A stretch of 64,000 nt of DNA. It comes from Escherichia coli (GTDB lineage: Bacteria > Pseudomonadota > Gammaproteobacteria > Enterobacterales > Enterobacteriaceae). Made by a program: the position numbers and the translations under genes. The stretch is taken from NCBI RefSeq assembly GCF_003334405.1, contig NZ_QOWM01000002.1; one strand, 5' to 3'. Below, in pieces: positions 13,216 through 64,000 of this stretch. A model generated the notes under the pieces. That model saw nothing but the letters and a program-made list of their open reading frames with translations, did no database searches and was not told the origin of the DNA. Each line of letters starts with the position of its first letter. The stretch's first letter is position 1.

Positions 13216-13292
<77 letters not shown>

Positions 13293-14633: not shown

Positions 14634-14816
14634 AGGGTGAGGGGTAACCTCACATCCTGATTATTGACTAAGTGCGCGTTGTTCATGCCGGATGCGGCGT
14701 GAACGCCTTATCCGGCCTACAAATCATGCAAATCCAAAATATTGCAGGAGTTATGTAGGCCTGATAAGCGTAGCGCATCAGGCATTTATGCGTTTAGGGT
14801 GAGGGATAACCTCGCC
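14634..14816. repeat. BIME: two inverted REP elements flanked by 21-bp direct repeats
   Basis: REP gccggatgcggcgtgaacgccttatccggcctac (14688..14720) and inverted REP gtaggcctgataagcgtagcgcatcaggc (14755..14783). Flanking repeats agggtgaggggtaacctcaca (14634..14654) and agggtgagggataacctcgcc (14796..14816). Confidence 0.7.
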
Positions 14817-17777: not shown

Positions 17778-17983
17778 AAAAAAAAGCACCGCAATTAGGC
17801 GGTGCTACATTAATCACTATGGACAGACAGGGTAAATGTACAGGAAGTGAAAAAAGGTAGCTTTGCTACCATGGTCTGAATCGCAGACCAATTGCAAACA
17901 CAACAACACAACATCACAACCGTAAGCCAAAAGTTCACCAGAACACGCATTCCGATAAAACTTTTCGTTCCGGCTCAGGAAGT
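17778..17983 (-). ncRNA. gcvB: GcvB small regulatory RNA
   Basis: The reverse complement matches the gcvB sequence as I recall it, from 5' ACTTCCTGAGCCGGAACG to the terminator hairpin (gcaccgcctaattgcggtgc) and U-tract. It is divergent from gcvA, with a TATAGT -10 just upstream on the minus strand. Confidence 0.85.
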
Positions 17984-36144: not shown

Positions 36145-36520
36145 TTCTATCTTCGTCGACAGGGAGTCAGACAACGAAGTGAACATCAGGATGATGACAC
36201 TTCTGCAGGACACACCAGGATGGTGTTTCAGGGAAAGGCTTCTGGATGAAGCGAAGAGGATGACGCAGGACGCGTTAAAGGACACCTCCAGGATGGAGAA
36301 TGAGAACCGGTCAGGATGATTCGGTGGGTCAGGAAGGCCAGGGACACTTCAGGATGAAGTATCACATCGGGGTGGTGTGAGCAGGAAGCAATAGTTCAGG
36401 ATGAACGATTGGCCGCAAGGCCAGAGGAAAAGTTGTCAAGGATGAGCAGGGAGCAACAAAAGTAGCTGGAATGCTGCGAAACGAACCGGGAGCGCTGTGA
36501 ATACAGTGCTCCCTTTTTTT
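36145..36520 (+). ncRNA. csrB: CsrB, CsrA-sequestering small RNA
   Basis: About 370 nt with roughly 20 reiterated GGA motifs (caggatg, aggaca, cagggag). Ends in a terminator hairpin gggagcgctg..cagtgctccc plus ttttttt (36488..36520). The 5' end is approximate. Confidence 0.85.
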
Positions 36521-36565
36521 ATTCCTGCTATCCTTCGCGGCAGTTTTTCTTATTGAGGTTGCTTT

Positions 36566-60967: not shown

Positions 60968-62679
60968 TGAGCGAAAAACATCCAGGGCCTTTAGTGGTCG
61001 AAGGAAAACTGACAGACGCCGAGCGCATGAAGCTTGAAAGCAACTACCTGCGCGGCACCATTGCGGAAGATTTAAACGACGGTCTGACCGGCGGCTTTAA
61101 GGGCGACAACTTCCTGCTGATCCGCTTCCACGGCATGTATCAGCAGGATGACCGCGACATCCGCGCCGAACGTGCTGAACAGAAGCTGGAGCCGCGCCAC
61201 GCGATGCTGTTGCGCTGCCGTCTGCCGGGTGGGGTGATTACCACTAAACAGTGGCAGGCGATAGACAAATTTGCCGGTGAAAACACCATCTATGGCAGCA
61301 TTCGCCTGACCAACCGCCAGACGTTTCAGTTCCACGGCATTCTGAAAAAGAACGTCAAACCGGTGCACCAGATGCTGCACTCGGTTGGTCTTGATGCGCT
61401 GGCGACCGCTAACGACATGAACCGTAACGTACTCTGCACCTCGAACCCTTACGAGTCGCAGCTACACGCGGAAGCGTACGAGTGGGCGAAGAAGATTTCT
61501 GAGCATCTGCTGCCGCGTACCCGCGCGTATGCGGAGATCTGGCTCGACCAGGAAAAAGTCGCCACTACTGATGAAGAACCGATCCTCGGCCAGACCTACC
61601 TGCCGCGTAAATTCAAAACCACGGTAGTGATCCCGCCACAGAACGATATCGATCTGCACGCCAACGACATGAACTTCGTGGCGATCGCCGAAAACGGCAA
61701 GCTGGTGGGCTTTAACCTGTTGGTGGGCGGTGGGCTTTCCATCGAACACGGCAACAAGAAAACCTACGCCCGCACCGCGAGTGAGTTTGGCTATCTGCCG
61801 CTGGAGCATACGCTGGCGGTGGCCGAAGCCGTCGTGACAACTCAGCGTGACTGGGGTAACCGAACCGATCGTAAAAATGCCAAAACCAAATACACGCTGG
61901 AGCGCGTGGGGGTTGAGACGTTTAAAGCGGAAGTGGAGCGTCGCGCGGGGATCAAATTTGAACCGATCCGTCCATATGAGTTCACCGGACGAGGCGATCG
62001 TATTGGCTGGGTTAAGGGCATTGATGATAACTGGCACCTGACGCTGTTTATCGAAAATGGTCGCATCCTTGATTATCCGGCGCGTCCGCTGAAAACCGGC
62101 CTGCTGGAGATCGCGAAGATCCACAAAGGCGATTTCCGCATTACGGCGAACCAGAATCTGATCATCGCCGGTGTACCGGAAAGCGAGAAAGCGAAGATCG
62201 AGAAGATCGCCAAAGAGAGCGGGTTAATGAATGCCGTCACGCCGCAGCGTGAAAACTCAATGGCCTGCGTGTCATTCCCGACTTGCCCGCTGGCGATGGC
62301 GGAAGCGGAGCGTTTCCTGCCGTCTTTTATCGACAACATCGATAATTTAATGGCGAAACATGGTGTCAGCGATGAGCATATCGTGATGCGTGTAACAGGC
62401 TGCCCGAACGGTTGTGGTCGCGCGATGCTGGCGGAAGTGGGCCTGGTGGGTAAAGCGCCGGGTCGCTACAACCTGCATCTTGGCGGCAACCGCATTGGGA
62501 CACGTATCCCTCGGATGTATAAAGAAAACATCACCGAGCCGGAAATCCTGGCGTCGCTTGATGAACTGATAGGGCGCTGGGCGAAAGAGCGCGAAGCGGG
62601 TGAAGGCTTCGGCGACTTTACGGTGCGTGCGGGCATCATTCGCCCGGTGCTCGATCCGGCGCGCGATTTGTGGGATTAA
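60967..62679 (+). CDS. cysI: Sulfite reductase [NADPH] hemoprotein beta subunit
   Basis: 570-aa ORF with a siroheme/4Fe-4S cysteine region ([16 protein letters not shown] ... TGCPNGCGR). Confidence 0.93.
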
Positions 62680-62696
62680 CCATCAGCCCGGTCTTG

Positions 62697-62731
62697 TAGG
62701 CCTGATAAGACGCGTGAGCGTCGCATCAGGC
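62697..62731. repeat. REP element between cysI and cysH
   Basis: gtaggcctgataagacgcgtgagcgtcgcatcaggc is REP-like. Confidence 0.55.
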
Positions 62732-62752
62732 AAGGCAAACAGTGAGGAATCT

Positions 62753-63487
62753 ATGTCCAAACTCGATCTAAACGCCCTGAACGAACTGCCGAAGGTAGAT
62801 CGCATTCTGGCGCTGGCGGAAACTAACGCCCAACTGGAAAAACTGGACGCTGAAGGCCGCGTAGCCTGGGCGCTGGATAATCTGCCCGGTGAATATGTGC
62901 TTTCTTCCAGCTTCGGCATTCAGGCGGCGGTGAGCCTGCATCTGGTGAATCAGATTCGGCCGGATATTCCAGTGATCCTCACCGATACCGGTTATCTGTT
63001 TCCGGAAACCTACCGCTTTATTGACGAGTTAACGGACAAACTCAAGCTCAACCTGAAAGTGTACCGTGCTACCGAAAGCGCCGCCTGGCAGGAAGCACGC
63101 TACGGCAAACTGTGGGAACAGGGCGTTGAAGGCATTGAAAAGTACAATGACATCAACAAAGTCGAACCGATGAACCGGGCGCTGAAAGAACTTAACGCGC
63201 AAACCTGGTTTGCTGGCCTGCGCCGCGAACAATCCGGCAGCCGCGCCAATTTACCGGTGCTGGCAATTCAGCGTGGCGTATTTAAAGTGCTGCCGATTAT
63301 CGACTGGGATAACCGAACTATTTATCAGTACCTGCAAAAACATGGCCTGAAATATCACCCATTATGGGATGAAGGATATTTATCGGTCGGTGATACCCAT
63401 ACAACCCGTAAATGGGAACCTGGCATGTCGGAAGAAGAAACACGTTTCTTTGGCTTAAAAAGGGAATGTGGATTGCACGAAGGGTAA
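62753..63487 (+). CDS. cysH: Phosphoadenosine phosphosulfate (PAPS) reductase
   Basis: ORF 62600..63487. Start placed at [42 protein letters not shown], giving 244 aa, with a C-terminal ECGLH motif. Confidence 0.92.
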
Positions 63488-63751
63488 ATATTGCCGGATA
63501 AATTAAACGCCTCTGTCAGAAATGATGGGGGCGTTTTTATTTTGCGAGCAGTATTCCTGATTTTAAACGTGAACGCCGCTGGAAGAATTATCAGGTATAG
63601 AATGGCGTCGGGTGCTTGAGGCTGTCTGGCGTTAAGCATTCGCGAGGTTCCAGATGGACAAAAGCCCCAGGCGATATTTCTATCAACCTGAGGCTTACGT
63701 TCGAACCCAAACAATTCGAATGTTAGTCTCTTCTTTGCAGGGAGGCAAGAC

Positions 63752-63904
63752 ATGCTGACAAAATATGCCCTTGTGGCAATCATAGTGCTGTGTTTTACAG
63801 TACTGGGATTCACGCTGATGGTAGGCGACTCGTTGTGTGAGTTGAGTATCAGAGAACGTGGTATGGAGTTTAAGGCAGTTCTCGCTTACGAATCGAAGAA
63901 GTAG
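63752..63904 (+). CDS. Hok/Gef-family type I toxin (50 aa), HokE-like
   Basis: Not in the ORF track because it is under 60 aa. I translated it by hand: [51 protein letters not shown] ggagg SD sits 7-11 nt upstream. It has one transmembrane helix and the conserved SLCE...R and AYES motifs of the Hok family. Confidence 0.7.
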
Positions 63905-64000
63905 CCACCACGCGGGGGTAAAACCCATAAGCGCTAACTTAAGGGTTGAACCATCTGAAGAATGCGACGCCTCGGTGCCTCGTTAAGACGATGCCTCGCG

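Follow-up and report, generated by a model that had tools for sequence, protein, structure and literature searches.

The closest described relatives of the locus analysed here are the hok/sok module of plasmid R1, the E. coli K-12 loci hokC (gef)/sokC (sof) and hokE/sokE, and hokX/sokX of E. coli B (the BL21(DE3)/REL606 lineage). R1 hok/sok is plasmid-borne and stabilises its plasmid. Its mok frame has 70 codons with a defined start. Hok synthesis in R1 needs translation of mok up to the hok Shine-Dalgarno sequence (PMC9841398). Mutations that weaken the last 3' stem-loop of the R1 mRNA abolish toxicity via RNase degradation (PMC9841398). In K-12 gef, fbi is disrupted by an IS186 behind the gene, inside which the mRNA is reported to end; in this configuration gef is reportedly still transcribed and antisense-controlled (PMC3562002). 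A hokX/sokX locus is named in three reports (PMC7232551, PMC12736100, PMC3903273). Hok and sokX adjoin cysH in 90% of urological isolates (PMC12736100), and hok-sok is a component of the CRISPR-I region in every strain that does not have the K-12-type cas-E2 module (PMC3903273). The affinity of IS186 for GC-rich sequences (PMC3903273), its insertion behind hokX and its part in reshaping the neighbouring CRISPR-Cas region (PMC3903273, PMC7232551) have been described as well.

With a probability of roughly 85% the end of the window, i.e. of the whole 64,000-nt stretch of E. coli DNA that was analysed, is the chromosomal hokX/sokX type I toxin-antitoxin locus of the cysH-cas3/iap intergenic region, in the allele known from E. 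coli B with IS186/IS421 22 nt past the hok stop codon. The E. coli B counterpart lies in the cysH-iap region and is the same locus: positions 62600-63926 of the window are identical to BL21(DE3) at 1327/1327 nucleotides, the toxin is the same protein (WP_000956460.1), and the left junction between hok and IS421 is identical. Both the locus and its disruption are already known; the main additions made here are the IS disruption, itself published, and a caution concerning the mok frame. The features of the locus are:

63505-63536, plus strand: intrinsic terminator of cysH, from the terminator scan (14-bp stem, then a T run)
63598-63603, plus strand: putative -10 box of hok, TAGAAT, 6 nt ahead of the first position of the Rfam model; the counterpart of TATAAT 5' of K-12 hokC in the alignment, and invariant in 10 alleles
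63610-63926, plus strand: body of the hokX mRNA up to the IS junction (leader, coding sequence, first 22 nt of the 3' UTR), from Rfam RF01794 and 5'-end homology
63610-63623, plus strand: tac element (5' GGGUGCUUGAGGCU), the partner of the 3' fbi element where the locus is intact, from the predicted pairing in the O26 allele
63654-63758, plus strand: 34-codon upstream ORF from the ORF list, the 'mok' of the initial annotation, with GAGG at 63644-63647; not conserved
63654-63712, minus strand: SokX antisense RNA gene with its 5' end at 63712, a 5' tail, a long hairpin and a U-rich 3' end, from mapping of K-12 sokX and the predicted fold
63690-63730, plus strand: Sok-target hairpin of the leader with the loop CCCAAAC (63706-63712), from the structure line of the Rfam alignment and the sequence
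63720-63748, minus strand: Sok promoter with -35 TTGCCT (63748-63743), a 17-nt spacer, -10 TAACAT (63725-63720) and 7 nt to +1, in the layout of K-12 sokB, sokC and sokE
63720-63758, plus strand: 12-codon mini-ORF in the frame of the 34-codon ORF, ending in ATGCTGA over the hok start; in 10/10 alleles
63741-63745, plus strand: hok Shine-Dalgarno sequence GGAGG, read from the sequence about 6-7 nt 5' of the ATG; unchanged in 10/10 alleles
63752-63904, plus strand: hokX coding sequence, 50 aa, F15 variant (WP_000956460.1), from the ORF list, Pfam, RefSeq, the allele alignment and paralog identity
63910-63926, plus strand: what the IS has left of the 3' hairpin ACGCGGGG-GUAAAA-CCCCGCGU, namely its left arm and the loop; in O26 (nt 301-322) the hairpin is uninterrupted
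63926-64000, minus strand: end of IS186/IS421 (1.34-kb element, transposase on the minus strand), which runs past the window; from the terminal repeat and the annotation at identical junctions

Like the locus in the window, R1 hok/sok combines a Hok/Gef toxin, of which 21/50 residues are identical to HokX, with an antisense Sok RNA whose promoter overlaps the hok Shine-Dalgarno region. Its leader is matched by the same Rfam model and a GC hairpin follows the stop codon; it shares with intact hokX alleles a 5'-3' pairing of tac and fbi, the sequences of which covary. In K-12 hokC an IS186 occupies the homologous position; its orientation and its sequence at the junction are those of the IS behind hokX, and the 5' tac sequence of hokC, GGGUGCUUGAGGCU, is likewise that of hokX. 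In contrast to hokX, hokC has an annotated in-frame MokC starting 57 nt upstream, and the two proteins share only 19/50 residues. K-12 hokE resembles hokX in protein sequence, leader and Sok, has an IS186 in the homologous 3' hairpin and, too, is without an annotated mok. Yet it resides at the ybdK-entD site and its IS is in the opposite orientation.

The 50-codon ORF proposed by the initial annotation is present behind its GGAGG and encodes the peptide exactly as quoted there. Its assignment to the Hok/Gef family was borne out by protein search: residues 5-46 of this 50-aa single-TM-helix toxin match Pfam HOK_GEF (PF01848) over model positions 1-42 of 42 with an E-value of 3.5e-11. The stated closeness to HokE was correct as well, K-12 HokE being the closest paralog with 39/50 identical residues, compared with 25/50 for HokA and 16-21/50 for HokB, HokC, HokD and R1 Hok. 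None of the NCBIfam models reached its cut-off with HokX; HokA scored 57.7 bits vs 89 and the Hok family 41 vs 73. HokX is thus no equivalog of HokA. Because no NCBIfam model applies at cut-off, the name of the ORF at 63752-63904, which adjoins cysH, remains the generic 'Hok/Gef family protein' in RefSeq rather than hokX. The statement that the ORF had been missed does not hold for public annotation, since RefSeq calls it in every genome examined. Judged by its sequence, this is a real Hok/Gef type I toxin locus and the ORF is no chance frame.

At least 80% of the region 63480-64000 is present in 4146/5426 complete E. coli genomes. K-12 has kept just the leader, identical as far as the hok ATG (63754), with divergent sequence from there on. 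The remnant is annotated as sokX (b4701); it lies between cas3 and cysH, with the two genes cysH and sokX on opposite strands. The initial annotation had likewise placed the K-12 sokX, next to the cas locus, at this position. To assess conservation 10 E. coli alleles were aligned, the 9 comparison alleles being 93-99% identical to the window over the region. The hok coding sequence had 10 variable sites, nine synonymous and one with an amino-acid change (C15 to F); F15 occurs in the window, BL21 and MSB1_4I. Across 8 divergent strains the Hok protein is identical with flanking DNA just 93-99% identical. In the same 10 alleles 1/44 columns was variable in leader nt 1-44 and 1/39 in the block of Sok promoter and hok Shine-Dalgarno sequence, compared with 20/112 in the upstream spacer. 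The substitution pattern indicates that the toxin and the regulatory RNA elements are under purifying selection. Variation within the transcribed part was highest in two loops, that of the Sok-target hairpin (63706-63712) and an internal one at 63695-63697. Beside two intact hokX loci the cas3 annotation is that of a pseudogene, owing to an internal stop in O26:H11 11368 (L003 3619-6318) and to a frameshift in 13P477T (L012 from 1019, past the locus end).

The gene order towards the window end is cysJ, cysI, cysH with the cysH stop at 63487, followed by the terminator at 63505-63536; the hok locus is a transcription unit separate from cysH. Several Rfam matches in this part were discarded. Those to ctRNA_p42d, Spot_42 and ncr952 (63408-63545) were sub-threshold and all lie on the 3' end of cysH and its terminator, while naRNA4 at 62700-62732 (both strands) reached 33.6 bits vs a gathering score of 59.5 on a REP-like palindrome in the cysI-cysH spacer. 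RF01794, on the other hand, matched 63610-63767 in full length (model positions 1-157) with 113 bits vs a gathering score of 59, and the model, which represents the conserved structured leader, matched the hok-sense strand in every locus tested. The mRNA 5' end GGGTGC is common to hokB, hokC and hokE; its R1 counterpart is GGCGC. Upstream of it no convincing -35 box of hok was recognised, and the -10 box TAGAAT is absent from the consensus scan.

RF01794 is named 'sok antitoxin', yet it covers the 157-nt hok leader, antisense to the annotated sokX, sokC, sokB and sokE RNAs (comparison loci L004 3300-3456, L005 1902-2054, L006 1690-1845, L018 1067-1218 and L017 282-453). Taken at face value the Rfam annotation therefore assigns 'sok' to the wrong strand and to almost three times its real length. 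An RNA-seq table for EHEC lists 'sok_15/sokX' with 152 nt and the promoter word tcaggtata (PMC5331693). This word corresponds to the hok-side promoter region of the window, 63591-63599.

A Sok-type antisense RNA had been expected on the minus strand at about 63650-63750. K-12 sokX (b4701, 59 nt) maps inside this range, to 63654-63712, with 56/59 identical positions and 3 mismatches. The RNA is predicted to fold into a tail and a hairpin of -24.7 kcal/mol, and the first 7 nt of Sok, its 5' tail, are complementary to the leader loop CCCAAAC at 63706-63712. The proposed search for a minus-strand promoter gave a divided outcome: the consensus scan of the window reported neither the hok nor the Sok promoter, but TTGCCT-17-TAACAT was found through sok homology. 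At an equal distance the K-12 genes have the -35 boxes TTGCCG (sokB), TTGACC (sokC) and TTGCCT (sokE), and at the -10 position TAAGAT (sokB) and TACCAT (sokE); the -10 box of sokC is less clear. The Sok promoter escaped the scan because it has just 8/12 consensus matches. With both promoters below the scan threshold, they were assigned by homology. The only match of the scan in the window, CTGACA-17-AATCAT at 63755-63783 within the coding sequence, was rejected as chance level (1 found vs 0.6 expected). Taken together, the locus has a predicted cis-encoded Sok gene that overlaps the hok leader and has its own promoter and terminator hairpin.

The long-range fold of the mRNA was examined in the IS-free allele of O26 11368, where the transcript from GGGUGC to the U run comprises 360 nt. 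Nucleotides 1-6 and 9-14 are predicted to pair with nt 341-354 at probabilities of 0.96-1.0 (0.75 for the last pair), values that are partly built in because the mRNA 3' ends were chosen at the complementary box. The fold as a whole had a z of -3.8. The same 5'-3' closure was predicted in two further hokX alleles, in K-12 hokB and in an R1-type plasmid hok, and also in K-12 hokC and hokE reconstructed by removal of IS186 in silico. The tac and fbi elements show compensatory changes, GGGUGC/GCACCC, GGGUGCC/GGCACC and GGCGCU/AGCGCC. Recurrence and covariation are real evidence for the closure. Directly 3' of the stop codon all hok loci that were folded have a GC hairpin, GCGGGG-N4-6-CCCCGC.

The initial annotation had expected this long-range pairing within about 63600-64000. 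In the allele of the window it is absent: nt 1-6 pair locally with nt 27-32, regardless of whether the transcript is ended at the IS junction or 200 nt into the IS. Because the IS at 63926 separates the mRNA from fbi, tac-fbi pairing is impossible here, while in intact hokX alleles it is predicted with a probability of about 1. The missing pairing is a lesion of this allele and no sign that the locus belongs elsewhere.

The lesion is caused by an element of which the window holds the first 75 nt only. A 23-bp IS terminal repeat, CATAAGCGCTAACTTAAGGGTTG, occupies 63926-63948; it starts inside the GC hairpin, 22 nt past the hok stop. In strain 602354, which has an identical junction, the element is 1337 bp long with an inverted right end and a minus-strand transposase annotated as IS421 family. 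It is flanked by a target duplication, GGGGTAAAACCC; beyond it come the remainder of the hairpin, the fbi box, the terminator and cas3. The duplication, seen at both IS ends in this strain, measures 10-12 bp. The assignment to IS186/IS421 (IS4 family) is based on the left repeat in the window and on the right end, duplication and transposase of genomes with an identical junction. GGGG-N5-CCCC in the hok 3' hairpin is what we take to be the IS186-type target consensus.

BL21(DE3) differs from strain 602354 on the right side of the IS. In 602354 the hok 3' end and cas3 come next, whereas in BL21(DE3) (L007 3078-4440) the left junction is the hokX hairpin and the right junction a different site, GGGGTTTTTCCCC, which directly adjoins the IS, with CRISPR repeats and iap immediately beyond it. 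A target duplication is lacking there, as are the cas genes (cas3-cas2) and the hok 3' end. The mismatched junctions, the lack of a duplication and the loss of cas3-cas2 fit a deletion between two IS copies, as proposed before (PMC3903273). We estimate from evenly spaced rows that about 600-700/5426 genomes carry the hokX::IS junction, a figure that is an estimate because hokE::IS186 junctions align too; junction-spanning matches were also found at plasmid hok copies.

IS186/IS421 is located in the homologous GGGG-N-CCCC hairpin behind hokX (window and BL21), behind K-12 hokC and hokE and behind some plasmid hok copies (window 63910-63948; comparison loci L005 about 1715-1760 and L006 about 1990-2010). 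The conserved 3' hairpin of hok is a recurrent target of IS186. That it might be a selected landing pad by which IS186-family elements repeatedly disarm hok loci is a weaker idea still than that of a mok-less hok subfamily considered below. One report that mentions hok, IS186 and cysH (PMC4557228) was set aside as irrelevant to hokX, since it concerns hokE deletions.

The mechanism of the intact locus can be modelled on R1 hok/sok (PMC9841398). A hok mRNA of about 360 nt would start near 63610 and be kept translationally closed by pairing of its 5' tac with its 3' fbi element. The mRNA would be opened by slow trimming from its 3' end as far as the GC hairpin that follows the stop codon. The 59-nt SokX RNA, transcribed from 63712 to 63654 on the minus strand, would then pair with the leader and lead to decay; upon loss of Sok the 50-aa membrane toxin would be made. 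In the window the toxin ORF is intact, and so are the leader structure and the Sok gene, whose promoter and hairpin are typical of the family. The IS splits the 3' hairpin, and fbi and the terminator are moved at least 1.3 kb away or deleted. The mRNA of this allele could thus probably no longer be held in the closed form or undergo normal processing. With the toxin gene itself intact, we infer from R1 and from K-12 hokC and hokE that the loss of both the 3' stem-loop and fbi would cripple post-segregational or stress-triggered regulation; the same has been proposed for K-12 hokC (gef), whose IS186 sits at this site in the same orientation.

Two other readings differ from this one in opposite directions. 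Conceivably, hok/sok is fully functional here, and the IS, lying outside of the coding region, leaves toxin and antisense RNA working as in IS-free alleles. Indeed the ORF, Shine-Dalgarno sequence, leader, Sok gene and Sok promoter are identical or nearly so to those of IS-free alleles, the F15 variant also occurs in the IS-free locus of strain MSB1_4I, and K-12 gef is reported to be transcribed and antisense-regulated with the same IS configuration (PMC3562002). The latter means that a crippled locus need not be silent. However, the IS cuts the 3' hairpin and takes away fbi, the predicted tac-fbi closure seen in every intact family member tested is missing, a weakened last 3' stem-loop abolishes toxicity in R1 (PMC9841398), and the IS is described in the literature as inactivating hokX in E. 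coli B; we consider full function improbable. The reverse reading, that the ORF is a chance or decaying frame without function, a relic like the sokX remnant of K-12, can practically be dismissed. K-12-type strains have lost the ORF wholly with no obvious harm, and the NCBIfam HokA and Hok-family scores are below the curated cut-offs. This contrasts with a Pfam E-value of 3.5e-11 for the product, a ratio of 9 synonymous to 1 non-synonymous change, the occurrence of the ORF region in at least 4146/5426 genomes and an unchanged protein in 8 divergent strains with flanks of 93-99% identity. The conservation pattern already contradicts a relic. We favor the view of a hokX locus with an intact toxin gene whose regulation would be crippled by the IS.

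The rival that concerns translation is more serious, though we regard it as doubtful. It holds that, as suggested by the initial annotation, Hok translation depends on mok-type coupling to the 34-codon frame at 63654-63758 and that Sok blocks this frame. The frame does end 4 nt past the hok ATG with the overlap ATGCTGA; it is open in the window with GAGG 6 nt upstream, its ATG at 63654 is the last triplet under SokX, and R1 offers the precedent that mok must be translated up to the hok Shine-Dalgarno sequence (PMC9841398). Yet the frame is intact in only 4/10 alleles. In the other 6/10 a stop codon at mRNA nt 101 (TAA or TAG, in the hairpin loop) ends it 42 nt before the hok ATG, and the Hok protein is unaltered there. 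Moreover, the frame starts 98 nt 5' of hok rather than at the 57-58 nt of annotated mokB and mokC, a distance at which hokX has no ATG, GTG or TTG. The 34-aa peptide had no match in NCBIfam, and hokE, the closest paralog, lacks a mok annotation. So, of the suggested coupling the overlap with the hok start stands; because the frame is intact in 4/10 alleles and starts off the canonical mok position, we do not regard mok-type coupling via this frame as established. This is a small point on the translation of this hok subfamily.

The non-conserved frame invites the speculation that hokX, perhaps together with hokE, represents a hok subfamily without a canonical mok. Translation might then be mok-independent via the strong GGAGG, or be relayed via short frames, namely an ORF of 18-34 codons from ATG 63654 and the invariant 12-codon ORF at 63720-63758, for which no Shine-Dalgarno sequence was visible upstream on inspection of the sequence. 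We think this unlikely; if true, it would amount to a modified form of textbook mok-hok coupling. The loop variants that make the stops ending the upstream ORF (equivalents of 63708-63710 in comparison loci L010-L015) also alter the 5' tail of the cis-encoded Sok.

For annotation, the value of the analysis is that the toxin ORF should be named hokX with sokX on the opposite strand; beyond that its importance is small. In toxin-antitoxin inventories the locus should be marked as disrupted by the IS at the 3' end rather than counted as an intact module. Elsewhere in the window the RNA genes at Rfam gathering scores are CsrB (36164-36523, plus strand), GcvB (17778-17983, minus strand), a tRNA (13219-13292, minus strand) and ES036 (14720-14762, plus strand).
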